From NCBI GenBank assembly GCA_033286805.1, contig GCA_033286805.1_4727.1: DNA of 64,000 bases. One strand, written 5' to 3'. The notes under the pieces were generated by a model, which did not search any database, was not told where the DNA came from, and saw only the letters and a program-made list of their open reading frames with translations. Both the position numbers and the translations under genes were made by a program. This document shows positions 18,474 through 40,485 of this stretch, piece by piece; the stretch's first letter is position 1; each line of letters starts with the position of its first letter. The stretch comes from a phage.

Positions 18474-18971
18474 TTACGTGTGTCGTCGTTTACCAAAGAA
18501 AATGTGGCTGTCTACCACGGTGATATTGGTAGCATGTTTTCTGAAATGTTTAGGGCGAAGATGTTTCGCGTTAAAGAATACGGCTCCTCGTGTTGGGTCG
18601 GCTTTATGGTAAGCCGCAATGTCAGTATAACGTAATGTTGCGACCTCTCGTGCTATTGCTCTTGCTCGCTCAAAAGCAGCATGATCGCGTATGACAATAC
18701 GCCTTTGTTTTGTCCAGGGGAATTGACCTCTTTGCAGTACGACGTCTCTGACGTTCGTAGGGAATCGGTAGTCCATAGATCGATTATGTATTAAAAACGC
18801 CACGGAGTATTGCCCTTTTACAGATTCGCCTCTGGCTTCCATATACACCGCACATGCGACGATCTCTTTCCGGCAATCGATTCTAGGCCCTGCGTTCACT
18901 GATGCTTGACTGAACGGTGTAATAAGCAGCATAACAAGCCCTAAAATCAACGTGTGTAAAATACCTTGCAT
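18474..18971 (-). CDS. SleB-like cell wall hydrolase with signal peptide (candidate endolysin)
   Basis: N-terminal signal sequence MQGILHTLILGLVMLLITPFSQA; motif ACAVYMEARGESVKGQYSVAFLIHNR resembles the SleB/Hydrolase_2 family. Confidence 0.6.
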   Translation of the reverse strand: MQGILHTLILGLVMLLITPFSQASVNAGPRIDCRKEIVACAVYMEARGESVKGQYSVAFLIHNRSMDYRFPTNVRDVVLQRGQFPWTKQRRIVIRDHAAFERARAIAREVATLRYTDIAAYHKADPTRGAVFFNAKHLRPKHFRKHATNITVVDSHIFFGKRRHT

Positions 18972-19223
18972 CTTAATAACCTCACGATAAGGTGCTGTCC
19001 ACTGGCGTCTTGATAACGCATCCCGTCATCGGGTTGTTCTATTCAGCGGGCAGCAGGTTAGCGTCAGATGTTTGCCCGACATCCACGACAGAAATAAACG
19101 GTACTGAAAATACGGTCTCCTCTGGTTTGGCAATAAACATAACGTTGGATAACAGAACCCATTTCCCGCATCCAACGCGGTAAAGGTGTACATCGTTTGA
19201 ATTCATATAGTTTCTCAAAGATG

Positions 19224-19544
19224 TTAACCTCTACCGTCGAGCCATAGGTTGTATTTATCCCGAATGTACGGATCACGATAAATACGTCGATAGACTTGAT
19301 GCGGTATAAACTTGCAATGTACGAGTTCGTCGCTTAATTTATGCCGTCGCTCCATACCGTTGTGAATACGACGTATCTCCCGGATATTAAAGGTTGTTTT
19401 ATTCAAGAGAATAGACATAATGGCGGATCGATGATCCAGATTAAAGATCGCCATCACGCTTCGTATCTCGCGTAAAACAACTTCTCTATCGACAAGGATG
19501 CGATTAGTTAACTTAAGATTCTCCGTGATACCCATAACCTTCAT
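19224..19544 (-). CDS. hypothetical protein
   Basis: ORF 19224..19628; start probably at an internal Met because the upstream ORF overlaps. Confidence 0.3.
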   Translation of the reverse strand: MKVMGITENLKLTNRILVDREVVLREIRSVMAIFNLDHRSAIMSILLNKTTFNIREIRRIHNGMERRHKLSDELVHCKFIPHQVYRRIYRDPYIRDKYNLWLDGRG

Positions 19545-19884
19545 CCTCGACACGTCGACACATCGGTAAAAATAAACACCAGCTTGTTGCACTGAGGATC
19601 GCCGTTGCGATGATATTTGCGATATCACTCAATCGAGCATCGGCTTGCCACATAACAAGCATGAAAAGAACGTACGCGAACCCATACACGACAAACCGTC
19701 TGATGTTACGCGTCGACCACGTACAAATATACAAAAGGGGAAGCTGCCCTATAACACAAACGATGGTTCGGATAACGTAATAAACGCGTTCCGTCGTTGT
19801 TTCAAAATCGATATTCGTTGCAGAAATCCCAATCATTATAAAAGTGAAAATGAAATAGATTTTTGCGTATGTCTTTAAACTCAT
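19513..19884 (-). CDS. hypothetical membrane protein
   Basis: 123 aa with several hydrophobic segments (IYFIFTFIMIGISA; VYGFAYVLFMLVMW). Confidence 0.45.
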   Translation of the reverse strand: MSLKTYAKIYFIFTFIMIGISATNIDFETTTERVYYVIRTIVCVIGQLPLLYICTWSTRNIRRFVVYGFAYVLFMLVMWQADARLSDIANIIATAILSATSWCLFLPMCRRVEDEGYGYHGES

Positions 19885-19900
19885 GGCTTTTCCCGATCGT

Positions 19901-20098
19901 TTATTTGTGTTTTCCTACATTCCTCAACAAGGTAACGATAACGAATACCGCTATCATCAAGAAGACGAACCATAACCCTACGTTAATTCGGGCAGCAGGT
20001 TCATCGACCATGAAGAACATCATCCCACAAAACCCAATGACCATCCATGCTAGAACCATCCCCGTTAATCCCCGTAGTAGCATATGTCCCATCATGAA
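19901..20098 (-). CDS. hypothetical small membrane protein
   Basis: ORF 19901..20134; start probably at internal MMGHM. Hydrophobic (LAWMVIGFCGMMFFMV; LWFVFLMIAVFVIVTLL). Confidence 0.35.
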   Translation of the reverse strand, partial: FMMGHMLLRGLTGMVLAWMVIGFCGMMFFMVDEPAARINVGLWFVFLMIAVFVIVTLLRNVGKHK

Positions 20099-20268
20099 CT
20101 CCTTCTTACTTTTTCTGATAAAGCGATGATTCAAATTTTAGAAACACCGCTAACGCGAATGCGAGTAATAACGCACGTACCCACATACCTCCTTGACAAC
20201 TGTTGTACAACATAAAGACCAGAGCAATGCCGCCCATATGTAGGCGGCACTTATCGAACAATGTTGGT

Positions 20269-20496
20269 TTATACATAAGAGATTAAACGTTGAATGATTT
20301 TTACTTTGCCTTTACCTGGACCTTTCTTGCGGCGATTCAACAGTCGGATACTGTTTCCAGTTACGGTGTCGCCATCATAATCAGCCCGGAACTGTGATAA
20401 AAAAGCAGGCTGTATCGGATCGACACCAGGATTGCTGTGGAAAGGATTGAGACTTAAAAGAGGGTTAGCTGGAATCATCGTATTGTCCTTACTCAA
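20269..20496 (-). CDS. small protein with KKGPGKGK basic motif
   Basis: 75-aa ORF; C-terminal RRKKGPGKGKVK matches the motif seen in three tandem small ORFs at 37615-38182. Confidence 0.35.
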   Translation of the reverse strand: MSKDNTMIPANPLLSLNPFHSNPGVDPIQPAFLSQFRADYDGDTVTGNSIRLLNRRKKGPGKGKVKIIQRLISYV

Positions 20497-20847
20497 TTAT
20501 TTACCCAGATAGAGATATTCACCGCCCTGAACAACACCGGTTGCAGGATCAACAAGTATACGAACCCGCGCGTAGGTCTTGAAAGAGGGGTTGAAAACTT
20601 CGAAGTCTGCCACTTTCAATTTCACGCTGGGGTTGGTAGGGTTCTTAACTCCGGGAAGTTCTTTCGGGGTACCGAAATCAACACCGCATTCTTCAAGGTC
20701 TGCTGGCGTCATGCTCTCCATGGCCATGTAGATTGCTTTCGCTTTATCGTAAACTTCTGGGCTATCCAGCAATCCAGCCTGCGCTGAACCGACAACACTA
20801 CCGAACAGAATAGCAACAGCAACAAACAATTTAGTTAACGTTTTCAT
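20497..20847 (-). CDS. hypothetical secreted protein
   Basis: Signal peptide MKTLTKLFVAVAILFGSVVGSAQA; 116 aa. Confidence 0.5.
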   Translation of the reverse strand: MKTLTKLFVAVAILFGSVVGSAQAGLLDSPEVYDKAKAIYMAMESMTPADLEECGVDFGTPKELPGVKNPTNPSVKLKVADFEVFNPSFKTYARVRILVDPATGVVQGGEYLYLGK

Positions 20848-20883
20848 GATATTTTCCTCGAAAGTAAAATGTTACAATACTTA

Positions 20884-21306
20884 TTAACGTACGGCCGCCA
20901 CACTGTTAGCGCATGCCTGAATATCATCGGTATTTACGATGATGGTTTCGTTAAACGCACGAATACGCGCACGACGTGCTTCTTTAAGGCTGGCGATTGC
21001 GCTAGCAGCTTGATCTGTATTCGCAAGGCTAATAACCGGGATCAAACGCATGTCAGGACTGCAGATATTCAATGCTTGGTATACACGTCCATTGATTCCT
21101 ACGGTATCAGACATCGGATAGTGCGCACGGCATTGAAATTGACCCATGACAACAAGCGAACGATCGGAGATACCAATCTGATAACGACCGTCTTCGCTGT
21201 AGGCGTAGCAGTTATTCCCACGAGCCATCCAGTTAGCCTGTGCTTGCGTGCTAACAAAAGCCAGGGTGGTGACGATAGCGAATACGATATTTTTGAACAG
21301 TTTCAT
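20884..21306 (-). CDS. hypothetical secreted protein
   Basis: Signal peptide MKLFKNIVFAIVTTLAFVSTQAQA; 140 aa with several Cys; ATG verified at 21304-21306. Confidence 0.5.
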   Translation of the reverse strand: MKLFKNIVFAIVTTLAFVSTQAQANWMARGNNCYAYSEDGRYQIGISDRSLVVMGQFQCRAHYPMSDTVGINGRVYQALNICSPDMRLIPVISLANTDQAASAIASLKEARRARIRAFNETIIVNTDDIQACANSVAAVR

Positions 21307-21341
21307 GATAAAGATCCTTATTGAAATAAAATCGGTATAAA

Positions 21342-21361
21342 GGCCCCCATTTAGGGGGACC
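21342..21361 (-). terminator. stem-loop terminator
   Basis: CCCCC / GGGGG stem followed on the minus strand by UUUAUACCGAUUUUAUUU. Confidence 0.5.
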
Positions 21362-21364
21362 TGA

Positions 21365-21682
21365 TTAGTTTGCGCGTAAGAAATGACCCAGAACCGTTAC
21401 GATTGGAAACAGCCCTGTAACAGTATCATCGCCCGAAAACATCATCATTGTTCCGTTAACGGTGATGAAACGGATGTCGGTTGCGGACCCATCGATAGCG
21501 ACAAAACGCATCGAGTTCGGTGGAAGGTCCTCAACCACTTCCACGAGATACTCGCGATTATCAAAGGCTTCTTTAACACGACGCATGAAACGAATCAGTG
21601 TTCCTTCCGCGTCGGCTTCCAAATGACCTAAGATATCGCGATTATTACGAATAGCAAATACAGCCATTTTAAACATACACAT
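21365..21682 (-). CDS. hypothetical protein
   Basis: 105-aa ORF. Confidence 0.45.
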   Translation of the reverse strand: MCMFKMAVFAIRNNRDILGHLEADAEGTLIRFMRRVKEAFDNREYLVEVVEDLPPNSMRFVAIDGSATDIRFITVNGTMMMFSGDDTVTGLFPIVTVLGHFLRAN

Positions 21683-21747
21683 CTTGACATCCTTTTATAT
21701 TGGATTGATTGCTAATAATTCAAGGTGAAGCTGATTACTGTATTGCT

Positions 21748-21772
21748 TCACCTAGGTAATATAGCCGTGAAA
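21748..21772. promoter_or_regulatory. conserved 25-bp intergenic motif, copy 1
   Basis: CACCTAGGTAATATAGCCGTGAAA, near-identical to the motif at 49690-49714; 66-90 nt upstream of minus gene start 21682; adjacent to hairpin GGTGAAGC..GCTTCACC. Confidence 0.3.
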
Positions 21773-21790
21773 ATTAATGTATTAACCTAT

Positions 21791-22747
21791 TCACGCTTTT
21801 GCTGAGTAGGGTTGGATCTCATTAATTCGTTTAACCACAACCTCAGGGAAAAGTTTGAGTATCTCATCAGGTGGTATCGCACCTTCTGTCCAACGATAAC
21901 GTTCAACCATCTCGATGCGTGGACTCCCTCCGACGTCAGCGATACGAAAGATGCAGGCGATGCCTAAATCGAAGCATACGCTGTAAATATCTTCCGTACC
22001 TCCTTTATCTGCAAGTATTTTCGCAAAATGCTCGTTATCAGGAAGAATGGCTAAATTACGGATACACCAAACATTATTCCCCATTTCTTCAAGTTTTGGG
22101 TAGGTTAAAGTGTGCCCGTATTGTGTTAACCATCGATGATTTTCGAGGTAGAAGTCCTTATCTCCGGGTCGATAACTCCGTAACACCGCCGTGTAGAAGA
22201 GATTGGGCATATCGAGCAGTTCTTGAATCGTTGGACCCGTATGCTCCCAGAGACAGATTTGTTTACGGTCTATATCGTAATCTGTGACGTTACTCACCTC
22301 CCAACTTATCGTAAGTTCATCGGCAACATGCCAACCTAAAGCCTGTTCACCACCAAGCAGATTAACAATGGCTGTTATTTCATACTTGTCAAATACGCCT
22401 AAATTACGCGGCGGCTGCATCGTACGTAATGGCTCCCACAGCACACTGTAATCATAGAGCAAATGGCGACATAAACTTTTTGTTAGAGGTGTCTGTTCAG
22501 TGAACAGTGGAAGAATCACCGTATCCAATAACGGGCGTAACGGATGACCATTCGGTGGTAACGGGGCAGCCAGCCGACCTCCTTCTTTGGGGTAATCGAA
22601 ACCAAACCCGTAACGCTCCGAAATGAGTGCAATCAGCACTTTTGCTACGCGGTTACGTAGCATGCGATGGATGTCATCACTGTAACTGAATTTCGGTTTA
22701 TTACCGCAAACGAAGGTGAAGTATCTGGGCGTTAGCGCAGCCATCAT
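21791..22747 (-). CDS. hypothetical protein
   Basis: 318-aa ORF. Confidence 0.5.
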   Translation of the reverse strand: MMAALTPRYFTFVCGNKPKFSYSDDIHRMLRNRVAKVLIALISERYGFGFDYPKEGGRLAAPLPPNGHPLRPLLDTVILPLFTEQTPLTKSLCRHLLYDYSVLWEPLRTMQPPRNLGVFDKYEITAIVNLLGGEQALGWHVADELTISWEVSNVTDYDIDRKQICLWEHTGPTIQELLDMPNLFYTAVLRSYRPGDKDFYLENHRWLTQYGHTLTYPKLEEMGNNVWCIRNLAILPDNEHFAKILADKGGTEDIYSVCFDLGIACIFRIADVGGSPRIEMVERYRWTEGAIPPDEILKLFPEVVVKRINEIQPYSAKA

Positions 22748-35942: not shown

Positions 35943-36275
35943 TTAAAGTTTTAACGTATTGACGCCGCTTATAAAGGCGTTGATTTCATTGTCGATGTTA
36001 CCGGTTTGCTCGATAATCTTCTCCACCATCAATCTTGGTTTGTTATAAGCAATACTTACAGCATCGGGACCATTCCCATACATGCTCGCCACGTAAATTC
36101 GAAGTTCTTTTAAACGATCAAGTAACAACTGCGCGATTTCCAGAACTTCTTCTGTAGCGGTCTGTACGTTGCATTCGCGTAACTTGTGCTCTAACAGCGA
36201 TGTCGCGGCATCGAGCATGGATGTGTATTTACGATAGTTATAAATATCAATTATAGCTGTCTGATTCATATACAC
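35943..36275 (-). CDS. hypothetical protein
   Basis: 110-aa ORF. Confidence 0.45.
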   Translation of the reverse strand: MYMNQTAIIDIYNYRKYTSMLDAATSLLEHKLRECNVQTATEEVLEIAQLLLDRLKELRIYVASMYGNGPDAVSIAYNKPRLMVEKIIEQTGNIDNEINAFISGVNTLKL

Positions 36276-36280
36276 GTTAT

Positions 36281-36649
36281 TTATTTATCGGGGTCTGGAA
36301 AATAGTAAAATCGCCAATGCAACATAGAGATCGCATTTCTTATTTGATTCGCACGAACACAGCGTCCGAGAAAGGACTTGTAGCAAGAATCGCAATCCAT
36401 GAACAACTCATGGCTCGATTTCATCAGAACCACGATGTCTCTTATATACGAATTGCAGTACTCGATAAACGGGTCTGTATCGTACGTATATTTCCTCGCA
36501 CTACCTATCCCCAACTCTCTATTTAACTCACGACAATTTATCATGAGCTTCACATAACGGATAAGCCGAACGAAGTCACGTAAATTACGATTAAACCAAT
36601 ATCGATACCAAAATGACTGTATACTCCGAACAGTTCTATTTAACTTCAT
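36281..36649 (-). CDS. hypothetical protein
   Basis: 122-aa ORF in a lower-GC stretch. Confidence 0.4.
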   Translation of the reverse strand: MKLNRTVRSIQSFWYRYWFNRNLRDFVRLIRYVKLMINCRELNRELGIGSARKYTYDTDPFIEYCNSYIRDIVVLMKSSHELFMDCDSCYKSFLGRCVRANQIRNAISMLHWRFYYFPDPDK

Positions 36650-37280
36650 TGATACCTTCTATTAGTTGTACAGCAACTTCTTTTTCGGTGCTATAAAAGA
36701 ACTTGCGGTGGAACTGAACAAGAAGCTTTTCGAATTTACATTGAACGATCTTTTTGCGTTCGATATGACCCAGGGAGAGCAAAGCACCCATGCAACGTAC
36801 CGCTTGTTCGAGAACCTGTTTCGCGGTATCGTGATCGTCCGGTAACGGTAAATCTTCCTCGTCATCTTTAGCGATAAGACGTCTAATGATGTTATCGATA
36901 CGTATCTCATCACCGTTAATGAAAGCGCCTTTCTCCCATTCATCAAATCGTTGATGGATTCGACGTTGTAAGTTGGCCCTGTCTTCCGTTAACTCTTTCA
37001 ACTGGCTTTCTAAGTGGGATACGGTACGGCGGTCGGTTTCAGTGAAGTTTTCCGATTCTTTGTACCACCAATCGTTACGCGCTTGTAAGTCATTAATGCG
37101 AGAAATCGTCCGACGACACTCGTTAACAAACGCATCGCCGTTCGATAGCTCCGTACCGAAATAGCATTTGTATTTATAACGCATAACACGGATTAAACGT
37201 TTCGTTAGAAAACCTTGTTTCTCCAGTTTCTTCTTCAGTTGGGTGTATTTCTCTTCTTTTGTTTCCGCGATATCTTTCAT
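36636..37280 (-). CDS. hypothetical protein
   Basis: 214-aa ORF, charged and helical in character. Confidence 0.45.
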   Translation of the reverse strand: MKDIAETKEEKYTQLKKKLEKQGFLTKRLIRVMRYKYKCYFGTELSNGDAFVNECRRTISRINDLQARNDWWYKESENFTETDRRTVSHLESQLKELTEDRANLQRRIHQRFDEWEKGAFINGDEIRIDNIIRRLIAKDDEEDLPLPDDHDTAKQVLEQAVRCMGALLSLGHIERKKIVQCKFEKLLVQFHRKFFYSTEKEVAVQLIEGINEVK

Positions 37281-37627
37281 GCCATATTCTCCGTTATATG
37301 CTTTAAACTGTTACGTATACTTTTCAATCGGTGGTTAAATCCGGAACGATAACATTTCCGTACAACCCTTGGCGCTCGCGCTTTATTCGCCTGATGAAGC
37401 TGTTCATTCACCTGCGACGCTATACGTAAACGCTCTAATAAAGAGCTCAACCGAATGACAACCAACGGTTGTTCTTTCACCTTCTCTAGTTTGAGTAAAG
37501 AGTCAATATGAAACTTTATATCGATAATCTGATTCCTGTTTTTGCGGTACTGATGAATATACCAGCATCGACGAAAATAGGCGATGCTAAGCATAGGGTG
37601 GATCCTCTTCAACGCTATCTCCAACAA
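37277..37627 (-). CDS. hypothetical protein
   Basis: 116-aa basic ORF. Confidence 0.4.
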   Translation of the reverse strand: MLEIALKRIHPMLSIAYFRRCWYIHQYRKNRNQIIDIKFHIDSLLKLEKVKEQPLVVIRLSSLLERLRIASQVNEQLHQANKARAPRVVRKCYRSGFNHRLKSIRNSLKHITENMA

Positions 37628-37812
37628 TACATCGGATTAGGTGATTTATGGCATTTATAAATACCTACTTTCTTCTGTCTACCTTTACCTGGGCCTCGTT
37701 TAACGCGTTTGTTATAAACACGACCCAAATATCGAGTGACGATAGATCGGGATAAATACATCGGATCGATATAATCCAGAGTACCCGCTTCTGTTTCTTC
37801 GAGGCATTGCAT
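37615..37812 (-). CDS. small basic protein with RGPGKGRQKK motif
   Basis: 65 aa; ATG verified at 37810-37812 with GAGGAG upstream. Confidence 0.4.
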   Translation of the reverse strand: MQCLEETEAGTLDYIDPMYLSRSIVTRYLGRVYNKRVKRGPGKGRQKKVGIYKCHKSPNPMYCWR

Positions 37813-37838
37813 GCGTAACTCCTCTTTCCTCTAAGAAG

Positions 37839-38042
37839 TCAATCCAGCATAAGCCACGGCATCGCTTTCGCGATAGAATCCACCGCAGCATTTGCGATCC
37901 TTCGTTCAGTCGTTGGTACCACGTGCGCCACGAACCGTTTCCCTTTATTGCAACCTTTCTTGTGTTTTCCTTTGACCAAACGAACACCAATCATGTCGTT
38001 GATAACATGATTTAGTATGTGGCGCTGTAGAGAATTAATCAT
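37839..38042 (-). CDS. small basic protein with KGKHKKGCNKGKR motif
   Basis: Track ORF begins at a GTG (38045); ATG at 38040-38042 taken as the start. Confidence 0.4.
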   Translation of the reverse strand: MINSLQRHILNHVINDMIGVRLVKGKHKKGCNKGKRFVAHVVPTTERRIANAAVDSIAKAMPWLMLD

Positions 38043-38182
38043 CACTTTTACTCCAGGCAGAGAAGATTCTCGGTTTTAGTTCTATCTGTCCGCATATCCA
38101 GGTGTATCTCCATTTACCTTTACGAGGACCTTTCTTATTTTTAACACCTATCAGAATACGATAGGGGTACGACCAAGTCATT
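38036..38182 (-). CDS. small basic protein with KKGPRKGK motif, not in ORF track
   Basis: 48-aa ORF MTWSYPYRILIGVKNKKGPRKGKWRYTWICGQIELKPRIFSAWSKSDD; ATG at 38180-38182 preceded by AGGAG at 6-nt spacing. Confidence 0.35.
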
Positions 38183-38210
38183 GTAAACTCCTAAATAAAT
38201 CTCAATGTTC

Positions 38211-38471
38211 TTAATGCAGTTGCTTCTTAAAACCTAATTTAAGAAGCGTCATTCTCTTGTCGATGGTATCTAATGCTTCCAGCAAGGATTCACGCTGTTC
38301 TTTCGTAAGCATATCGACGCGTAGACGTTCGTTAATTTCTGCTTTAAGCTGTATAGGAAGGGTTTGTGTAAGTATGCTATCAGCCTCCATCTCGTAACTA
38401 TTTTTCGGTGTGGGTAATGCTTCAGTAACACCGGTGAGATAAAAACCGATAGTGGTTACTCGTTCATCCAT
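38211..38471 (-). CDS. hypothetical protein
   Basis: Track ORF to 38537 begins with a non-ATG codon inside a hairpin; start taken at internal MDERVTT. Coordinates approximate. Confidence 0.4.
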   Translation of the reverse strand: MDERVTTIGFYLTGVTEALPTPKNSYEMEADSILTQTLPIQLKAEINERLRVDMLTKEQRESLLEALDTIDKRMTLLKLGFKKQLH

Positions 38472-38521
38472 TGCTTCTAGCAGTTCAGAACTTACTTCAT
38501 CCACGATAGTTCTCCGTATTA

Positions 38522-38539
38522 GGGTGGGCGTACCCACCC
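38522..38539. terminator. short stem-loop after thyA
   Basis: GGGTGGG-CGTA-CCCACCC palindrome just downstream of the thyA stop (38552). Confidence 0.3.
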
Positions 38540-38551
38540 TCGGTTGTTAAT

Positions 38552-39571
38552 TTACACCGCCACCTTAGCCTTGATAGCGGGGTGTGATTGATATCCGACG
38601 AACACAAAGTCTTCGTAACGGTAATCCGTAATACTTTCCGGTTTACGTACGATTGTTAGCTTCGGTAATGGGTACGGCTCACGGCTGAGCTGCTCTTTAA
38701 CCTGTTCGAAGTGGTTATGATAGATGTGGCAATCTCCACCCGTCCACACGAACTCACCAACGTCCATATTCAGCTGTTGGGCAAGCATATGCGTCAGCAA
38801 CGAATATGAGGCGATGTTGAACGGTGTTCCGAGCAACACGTCCTGTGATCTGGCTAACAGCATACAAGACAAGGCACGTGTTGGTACGTTATGCGCATTC
38901 AACCAAAGTTCCGTTTCACTATGTCGTACATCATCCGTAACCCACTGGGTTCTTAATACGTCGTTGCGTTGAACATAATCAACGCGTTCATCGACTGTGA
39001 GTTCGTGGGTATAGAACTGATAGAAACTGTGGCATGCTGGAAGCGCCATATCGTCTAAATCGCCTACGTTCCACGCGCTAACGATGATCCGTCGAGAATC
39101 AGGATCTTCTTTAAGCTGACGCATCACGTTTGCGATTTGGTCGTGGTGTTTAACATACAAGAGATGTTTGACCATACCGGCGTCAACAACACCGCAATAC
39201 TCATAGCCGCGTTGCATCAACTCACGAGTACGTTCTGTATCGTGCGGGACAACCATTTTGTAGTCGATCCATTCCCGCCATTGTTTGCCGTAAATAGGTC
39301 CTAGATTCCCTTCTTCGTCAGCCCACTCATTCCAGATGCGAACACCGTTATCCTGAAGATAAGCAACGTTTGTATCACCATTAAGAAACCAGAGCAGTTC
39401 GTGGATAACGCTCTTAAGGTGAATCTTCTTGGTGGTTACCAGCGGGAATCCTTTCTTCAAGTCAAAACGCATCTGACGTCCGAATACGGAACGGGTCCCG
39501 GTGCCTGTACGATCAGCTTTATCACGACCATTATCCATGATGTCTTGCAAAAGGTCCAAATACTGTTTCAT
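38552..39571 (-). CDS. thyA: thymidylate synthase
   Basis: 339 aa; near-colinear with bacterial ThyA ([27 protein letters not shown]; [13 protein letters not shown]; catalytic-region [10 protein letters not shown]; [16 protein letters not shown]) plus a ~30-aa internal insertion. ATG verified at 39569-39571. Confidence 0.9.
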
Positions 39572-39771
39572 TTTAATCCTCTAAGTGTTTCAAGTAGTTC
39601 CTGAAATTTATAACGATATTTAGGATCGCTTAACGTGTAGCAGCAACCATGTAACACGTTATACGCGAAATCGGCTTGTAAACCACGAACCTTCGGATCC
39701 AATGATAGATTCAACGGCGCATCATCAAAAATCCACGCCTCAATGTTCTTCTTGGATTCCTTCGTTAACAT
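39568..39771 (-). CDS. hypothetical protein
   Basis: 67-aa ORF; 4-bp overlap with thyA. Confidence 0.4.
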
Positions 39772-39903
39772 CGTTGTTCACCTCGTCGTAAAAGTAAATA
39801 GAGTTTTGTCGAGACGCCCTAATTACTTACAACGTCGGTTCTCCCGGCTTCAGAGAATTCTTAAAATCCGTTAGTTTTGATAGATAGGGTAAGACGGCAT
39901 AAA

Positions 39904-39924
39904 AGCCTCCCATTACGGGAGGCT
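39904..39924 (-). terminator. stem-loop terminator
   Basis: 8-bp stem AGCCTCCC / GGGAGGCT, loop ATTAC, followed on the minus strand by UUUAUGCCGUCUUACCC. Confidence 0.5.
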
Positions 39925-39936
39925 CCATCAATCAAC

Positions 39937-40485
39937 TTACTTCACGAGAACAGCGAATTCGAGAACGTAAATAGTCTCGTCATCCATCGGATTTGTTGTG
40001 GTATAGCCAGCAAATTGATAGCCCATATCCACGATAAACTCGCTAAGTTTATCGATGACTGATACCCCGATACGATCGTCAACAGACAGACGACATTTAC
40101 GGGTTATGTTTTGCCCGCGAGGAACGCCAGCTAACACGGATAGGAAATGTACGATCCGGTTATTGGTTGCGAACTGCTTGAAATCGTCGTAGTGTTTAAG
40201 GTCTTTCATCGCAGACTCTACAGTCATCCGGCGACCAGGTGATACATACTCAGAATAAGAATAAGCTGCAATCGTGCGGCGGTCTTCAGTGAGGTAAGTG
40301 TTCCCATCAGGATGATAACTTTCGATTGTTCCGTCTTCATAGGCGACGGTCACAACAGGTGCGCCGTATTCGTCGCGACCGAAATCAACTTTACATTTGT
40401 CCGAAAGCGGTAGAATCGTACAAGGCTTTGCATTGTTCTCATCAGGGAGATCGTAACCACTCATCATTTTCAAGAACATAGACAT
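39937..40485 (-). CDS. hypothetical protein, tandem paralog
   Basis: 182 aa; shares N-terminal NNAKP and C-terminal IVK-ending regions with gene 40572..41105. Confidence 0.5.
   Translation of the reverse strand: MSMFLKMMSGYDLPDENNAKPCTILPLSDKCKVDFGRDEYGAPVVTVAYEDGTIESYHPDGNTYLTEDRRTIAAYSYSEYVSPGRRMTVESAMKDLKHYDDFKQFATNNRIVHFLSVLAGVPRGQNITRKCRLSVDDRIGVSVIDKLSEFIVDMGYQFAGYTTTNPMDDETIYVLEFAVLVK

Follow-up and report, generated by a model that had tools for sequence, protein, structure and literature searches.

The window analysed here, a stretch of 64,000 nucleotides of phage DNA, is approximately 96% identical to the nucleus-forming Escherichia coli jumbo phage Goslar. Positions 36500-39600 align over their full length with Escherichia phage vB_EcoM_Goslar (NC_048170.1) at 96.1% identity, and positions 18500-22500 align with another part of the same record at 96.5% identity. 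Three consecutive small open reading frames (ORFs) and a distant fourth, designated A to D, each contain one copy of a short basic motif, as an earlier note on this DNA had observed. These and the other genes discussed here are located on the minus strand. ORF A (37615-37812) encodes 65 aa with the motif KRGPGKGR (37678-37701) and a pI of 9.8; ORF B (37839-38042) encodes 67 aa with KKGCNKGK (37938-37961) and a pI of 10.7; ORF C (38035-38181) encodes 48 aa with KKGPRKGK (38113-38136); and ORF D (20269-20478) encodes 69 aa with KKGPGKGK (20305-20328). The pI values of the four proteins lie within the range 9.8-10.7. Two of the frames offer a choice of start codon. A GTG at 38045 would extend ORF B to 68 aa, and the Goslar annotation and all database homologs use the ATG at 38042. 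The frame of ORF D is open to a TTG at 20496 (75 codons); the ATG at 20478, which gives 69 aa as in the Goslar annotation, is the likely start. The Shine-Dalgarno-like sequences reported upstream of these ORFs were found for all four (GAGGAG for A, GGAG for B and AGGAG for C), and that of ORF D, AAGGA, precedes the ATG at 20478 and not the TTG at 20496. The start of ORF B overlaps the end of ORF C, an arrangement typical of translational coupling.

ORFs A, B, C and D are the orthologs of Goslar gp137, gp138, gp139 (RefSeq accessions YP_009820822-824) and gp102 (YP_009820787), respectively, with 88-100% amino-acid identity and the same order and strand. Therefore, the 48-aa ORF C is not a new gene: it had been described as missing from the annotation, and it is already present in Goslar as gp139 (YP_009820824.1). 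Its existence on the minus strand was borne out, and its coordinates are shifted by one nucleotide (38035-38181, not 38036-38182). In the Goslar RefSeq record, each of the four genes is labelled ‘hypothetical protein’ and carries no functional annotation. All four are thus annotated genes; neither the motif that they share nor their partial paralogy is mentioned in that record, and both had gone unremarked. The main texts of the Goslar papers searched, and the supplements of one of them, do not mention these proteins, and our search found no paper on the motif. The papers retrieved with the string ‘gp138’ concern other phages (PhiPA3; by title, phi92 and others) and not Goslar gp138.

How exceptional is the motif? 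In a six-frame scan of the 64-kb window, the pattern [KR][KR]G[PC].[KR]G[KR] occurred at four sites, one in each of ORFs A to D, and the same scan of the whole 237,307-bp Goslar genome returned the identical four sites and no others. By chance, 0.007 sites would be expected analytically, and 0.02 (maximum 1) according to 100 third-order Markov shuffles. The pattern was drawn up post hoc, from sites already seen, and this is immaterial because the excess over expectation is far too large. A core hidden Markov model built from all the subfamilies gave at least 38 bits for each of the four members and at most 9 bits for the next best open frame. The motif always lies in frame and on the coding strand. 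The underlying DNA had also been described as conserved, which is correct for ORFs C and D, sharing 21 of 24 bases, and not for ORFs A and B, in which Gly is encoded by GGC or GGG and Arg by CGA or AGA, so that they differ at synonymous positions or by K/R exchanges. Because the peptide pattern is kept despite these codon differences, they fit conservation at the protein level, from which the DNA similarity follows.

The earlier note had proposed that conservation of the small ORFs be sought in relatives, and it was found there. The reading frames are held in other Goslar-like genomes and contigs (nine in all for ORF D, seven to nine for ORFs A, B and C), and they are intact in every genome that possesses the gene. 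The gene order thyA-gp140-C-B-(A)-gp136 is retained in diverged Goslar-like contigs from public assemblies (L012-L016 and L141), in which the identity of B falls to 66% and that of C to about 55%. ORF A is present in Goslar, L004, L013, L015, L016 and L141 and absent from L012 and L014. The dN/dS ratios (Nei-Gojobori) were 0.31-0.52 for A, 0.12-0.33 for B, 0.24-0.29 for C and 0.29-0.56 for D. Between the window and Goslar, all three nucleotide differences in ORF C are synonymous, one of eight in ORF B changes an amino acid, and eight of 14 in ORF A do so. Across the genomes, codons for Gly, Lys and Arg in the motifs of B, C and D vary synonymously, and the motif residues are nearly invariant. 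Because the frames remain open in diverged genomes, dN/dS is below 1, and the motif codons vary synonymously, the situation that the earlier note had named as evidence for a DNA or RNA element, a conserved DNA motif in broken reading frames, does not obtain here; the coding reading stands. The absence of any Rfam match at E values up to 1 in window positions 36000-40000, together with the lack of a local excess of promoters or terminators around A-B-C, argues against an RNA or DNA element. We consider it very probable, from these comparisons of sequences, that ORFs A to D are real genes whose motif is constrained at the protein level. As accessory genes they are restricted to the Goslar-like chimalliviruses, with four members per genome, as was shown by the searches described here.

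The neighborhood of thyA differs among the relatives in further respects. In L013 (positions 75-2202, the counterpart of window positions 38552-39571), thyA is split into segments of 249 aa and 99 aa by a GIY-YIG/NUMOD3 homing-endonuclease gene, an organization that resembles the intron in the td gene of phage T4; no such insertion interrupts thyA in the window. In L012 (1170-1454) and L014 (1061-1345), an extra gene of 94 aa, which is absent from this position in the window and in Goslar, lies between thyA and the gp140 homolog. By eye, the C-terminus of its product (...LSGMSGKEVAMRYGVTPPCVTQIV...) has the look of a helix-turn-helix.

ORF D, recovered from nine genomes in all, is a composite of a constrained and a rapidly changing part. 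Its C-terminal segment, IRLLNR.KKGPGKGKVKI.QRLI.YV, is almost invariant (26 codons, dN/dS 0-0.1), in contrast to the fast-evolving N-terminal part, for which dN/dS is 0.5-1.3; the ortholog in L147 has an in-frame deletion of 5 aa. Residues 32-37 (20349-20366) read ADYDG[DE] in nine of nine orthologs, and the six residues that follow are hypervariable (TVTGNS, VVTRTR, SVIGNR, TVIGNH or IVTRTH). This hexapeptide superficially resembles the Mg-binding loop NADFDGD of the RNA polymerase beta-prime subunit; homology was rejected, as the match to the RNA-polymerase beta PHROG reached an E value of only 0.2. The surroundings of ORF D include the predicted membrane proteins gp100 and gp101, the signal-peptide proteins gp103 and gp104, and an endolysin gene 1.3 kb away. 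Furthermore, the stop codon of ORF D overlaps the ATG of a 56-aa hydrophobic ORF, MYKPTLFDKCRLHMGGIALVFMLYNSCQGGMWVRALLLAFALAVFLKFESSLYQKK (20106-20276), which has been left out of the Goslar RefSeq record, where a 176-nt gap occupies its place. Goslar and seven further Goslar-like contigs carry this ORF intact, with few amino-acid changes. Judging from its sequence, it probably encodes two transmembrane segments and is probably a gene for a small membrane protein, overlooked in annotation and coupled in translation to gp102.

Do the four proteins constitute a family, as had been proposed, or do they merely share a motif? The answer differs from one member to another. In a comparison of the subfamily alignments with hhalign, A and D were aligned with 92% probability (E 7e-7) over 38 columns, which span an N-terminal [LV]D.I.P.[YF]LS segment in addition to the motif. 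When the motif columns were removed, the similarity was retained at P of about 9e-4, a score reached by one of 100 column shuffles. A and D are, on this evidence from aligned sequences, diverged paralogs. The long form of C was aligned with D at 65% probability; after removal of the motif the match was not significant (18 of 100 shuffles), and we regard C, weakly linked as it is, as probably a diverged paralog of A and D. B, in contrast, was aligned with A, C and D at probabilities of 1-10%, over 6-14 residues that comprise the motif only; it has the motif with its flanks and its tandem position in common with the others, and no demonstrable common ancestry. The term ‘family’ is thus appropriate to A and D beyond the motif, applies less firmly to C, and has no demonstrable basis beyond the motif for B.

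The N-terminal regions of these proteins are variable or dispensable, as seen in the occurrence of short and long forms of C, the fast evolution of the D N-terminus, and the presence or absence of A. This variable content of A and C genes among relatives suggests that the invariant unit consists of the motif and its flanking strands. Trp, Tyr, Lys and Arg are abundant in C, whose protein cluster comprises 71 member sequences on 26 contigs. Used alone as a database query, C retrieved its own cluster only, and the C profile added two forms of 93-96 aa. These long forms, found in L013 and L141, carry two different N-terminal extensions, and the window and Goslar contain the 48-residue core only. 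An AlphaFold2 (AF2) model of a 96-aa relative of C (mean pLDDT 47) contains a helix followed by a beta-hairpin, with strands at residues 55-62 and 72-79 joined by the loop FKKGPRKGK, and the hairpin is the best-scoring part of the model. It is possible, at the low confidence of this model, that the motif of C is situated at the tip of a beta-hairpin.

B has an invariant C-terminus, KAMPWLMLD. Its AF2 model, based on nine sequences (mean pLDDT 58), consists of two helical regions; the loop that joins them contains the motif and is modelled with low confidence. Searches with tblastn against 50,697 phage records and scans of IMG/VR located B in Goslar and one Goslar-like contig only. A protein-database search recovered homologs down to 66% identity, and an exhaustive HMMER search with the B profile against 1.84 billion representative proteins returned Goslar-type B clusters only, with no relative outside the Goslar-like phages. 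The C-terminus of B (...IAKAMPWLMLD, 37839-37868) resembles the segment that precedes the hairpin in the long forms of C (...AVKAMWLYPYR and ...RYKAIWLYPYR; L013 2577-2858 and L141 4334-4624). This match, which is very short, hints that the C-B-A array may derive from a duplicated helix-hairpin unit in which the gene boundaries have shifted.

Pfam, PHROG and NCBIfam contained no credible match to A to D or to the long C, nor did PDB sequence searches yield one, and no characterized nucleic-acid-binding family was matched in these databases. Several individual candidates were rejected. For C, the long form gave a noise-level match (E 0.64) to Csy1 in PDB, and a likeness to AP2, H-NS or GIY-YIG that was suggested by eye had no profile support. 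For B, an origin as an N-terminal fragment of a class I aminoacyl-tRNA synthetase (GluRS) was considered; the best PDB profile match (E 0.17 over 34 residues) was noise, none of the nine members had a Pfam match, and the HIGH motif is lacking. The match of A to the C-terminus of polyphosphate kinase (PPK), with an E value of 0.48, was likewise at noise level and had no Pfam support. The B/GluRS and A/PPK alignments are suggestive by eye despite these E values.

What might these proteins do? We propose that each is built around one module, in which an exposed K-K-G-P-x-K-G-K loop connects a strand of hydrophobic or aromatic character to a second strand or to an amphipathic segment. In this proposal, the Lys/Gly/Pro loop, which in C would form the tip of the hairpin, would act as a polyanion-binding element; it may contact DNA or RNA at the backbone or in the minor groove, comparable in this to basic hairpins of ribosomal proteins, HU/IHF arms and AT-hook-like loops, and the proteins would be small nucleic-acid binders that act during infection. 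As a whole, this explanation, namely that A to D are real accessory genes with a polyanion-binding and most likely nucleic-acid-binding loop, seems to us plausible, at somewhat less than an even chance. Binding to nucleic acids specifically is suggested, tentatively, by the amino-acid composition, by the low-confidence hairpin geometry, and by the placement of ORFs A, B and C within a long operon downstream of thyA. The modelling of the B motif as a disordered loop between helices speaks against a hairpin in that protein, and the membrane and secreted proteins encoded around D suggest another target. A basic composition cannot by itself tell one target from another.

Alternatively, the octapeptide could be a short linear motif for one common partner, such as a shell or import component of the phage nucleus or a host factor, and could function as a targeting or docking signal common to small proteins that otherwise differ. 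Such a partner would account for the presence of the same octapeptide between unrelated flanks; the sequence on either side of the motif in B is wholly unlike that in A, C and D, and an invariant motif module adjoins variable N-terminal regions. Moreover, the phage is a nucleus-forming chimallivirus and belongs to a group for which published work describes selective protein import into the phage nucleus. However, the motif occurs in only four proteins per genome, and the long annotated replication and transcription genes of Goslar all lack it. We regard a common partner as unlikely.

The surroundings of D raise another alternative, in which the basic and aromatic module, like amphipathic membrane-targeting sequences, would bind anionic membranes; the site of action would then be the cell envelope or the early infection vesicle, and the target would not be nucleic acid. 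D is flanked by membrane and signal-peptide proteins near the endolysin gene, its stop codon overlaps the 56-aa hydrophobic ORF, and its C-terminus (KVKIIQRLISYV) is basic and amphipathic; the Trp, Tyr, Lys and Arg content of C would also suit such a role. Nevertheless, A, B and C lie downstream of thyA in an early-type, nucleotide-metabolism operon whose vicinity contains no membrane genes, and none of A to D has a transmembrane segment. Membrane binding, an idea that comes from gene context, appears to be a distinctly unlikely role for the set.

It is also conceivable that A to D are decaying remnants or chance ORFs, derived from homing endonucleases or captured host genes, and that the motif is a coincidence of low complexity. 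The loss of A from two relatives, the short and long forms of C, the faint likenesses of B to GluRS and of A to PPK, and the activity of homing endonucleases in this region of relatives, such as the GIY-YIG gene inside the L013 thyA, would be compatible with this. It is nonetheless highly improbable: dN/dS is well below 1, the frames are intact, the motif is invariant, the one indel is in frame, four motif sites stand against the 0.02 expected, the PDB matches are noise, and no endonuclease or aminoacyl-tRNA synthetase was matched in Pfam. Finally, the notion that what is conserved is the nucleic acid itself (AAGAAAGGTCC..GTAAAGG), with a role in regulation or recombination or as a structured RNA and with peptides that are incidental, draws on the 21 of 24 motif bases common to C and D and is effectively refuted by synonymous variation, given that A and B use different codons for the same peptide pattern, that Gly, Lys and Arg codons vary synonymously, and that the motif, which in every case is read in frame from the coding strand, has no Rfam match.

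What do these proteins offer? Chimalliviruses separate their own DNA from the cytoplasm, and to our knowledge it is poorly understood how their small accessory proteins find their targets, be these DNA, RNA, the shell or membranes. A lineage-restricted set of four proteins with variable N-termini and an invariant basic loop that is predicted to be exposed provides a tractable handle, since the proteins can be synthesized and the motif can be mutated. The value of the present observation is that of a lead and not of a discovery, as it concerns already annotated hypothetical proteins that share an uncharacterized motif. As a long shot, we also consider that the octapeptide might be a portable phage targeting peptide that takes unrelated small proteins to one destination and that has been reused in phrog_32989, a widespread group of marine-phage proteins. 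Were this true, candidate destinations would be the phage nucleus, along with its DNA, mRNA and ribosomes, and the early infection vesicle, and the fast-evolving N-termini of gp102 and gp137 would represent variable ‘payloads’ of an arms race.

The proposed polyanion-binding loop can be compared with known systems. The core of the AT-hook is R-G-R-P, and the AT-hook of HMGA and the Q/RGR loop of H-NS are basic loops that enter the minor groove. The Goslar-type proteins resemble them in presenting a short, exposed segment rich in Lys, Arg, Gly and Pro within a small basic protein; in contrast, the Goslar-type motif has the order G-P-x-K-G and lacks Arg-Gly-Arg, and the motif of C is embedded in a predicted hairpin, whereas the AT-hook lies in a disordered tail. 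Membership of the AT-hook family (Pfam PF02178) was rejected, as none of the four motifs contains RGRP and neither an AT_hook nor an H-NS match was obtained at E values up to 1. Basic beta-hairpin arms are found in HU/IHF and in ribosomal proteins, for example the hairpin containing ...VKGPKNRKF... near the C-terminus of bL27, and these have in common with the model of C two strands joined by a Lys/Gly/Pro tip; a hairpin in an HNH endonuclease that carries the octapeptide, described below, is of a similar kind. The Goslar-type proteins differ in that they show no sequence or profile similarity to HU/IHF or ribosomal proteins, are much smaller, and lack the remainder of those folds.

Homing endonucleases were considered as a further source. 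An assignment of A to D to fragments of homing endonucleases of the AP2/integrase, HNH or GIY-YIG type was rejected, with no Pfam match for any of these; likewise, in phmmer comparisons with the six-frame ORFs of Goslar, L012 and L013, endonucleases included, nothing rose above noise.

The octapeptide itself is more widespread. A scan of IMG/VR with the back-translated octapeptide listed at least 120 matches, and about half of the matches listed belonged to phrog_32989, a group of marine-phage proteins of approximately 55 aa, some of which end in ...GATGTQRYRIKKGPNKGKIL. These marine loci (L025-L139) include L041 (1301-1477), L048 (7322-7492) and L072 (6325-6507), with proteins ending in ...EVEIGATGTQRYRIKKGPNKGKIL. 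In L048, the neighbors of the phrog_32989 gene are presumably counterparts of the T4 neck proteins gp13 and gp14 and the tail protein gp15, and in L072 and L121 the neighbors are of a kind that we take to be podovirus-like, and the gene would stand last in the structural module. The phrog_32989 proteins resemble the Goslar-type proteins in being small phage proteins with an identical K-K-G-P-x-K-G-K octapeptide that follows a Y-x-I strand. They differ in that hhalign aligns only 8-11 residues of the motif with the Goslar-type proteins, at 20-75% probability; membership of A to D in this group was rejected, as they gave no match at E values up to 1, whereas five marine proteins matched at 1e-10 to 1e-16. 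Also among the matches listed, the octapeptide occurs in long proteins of about 500-600 aa and, between two strands, in an HNH endonuclease (GYGKMSMRF-KKGPRKGK-VKSALAHRV). Although these proteins are not detectably homologous to those of Goslar, the occurrence of the same octapeptide in an HNH endonuclease and in phrog_32989 fits the idea of a portable, exposed basic loop.
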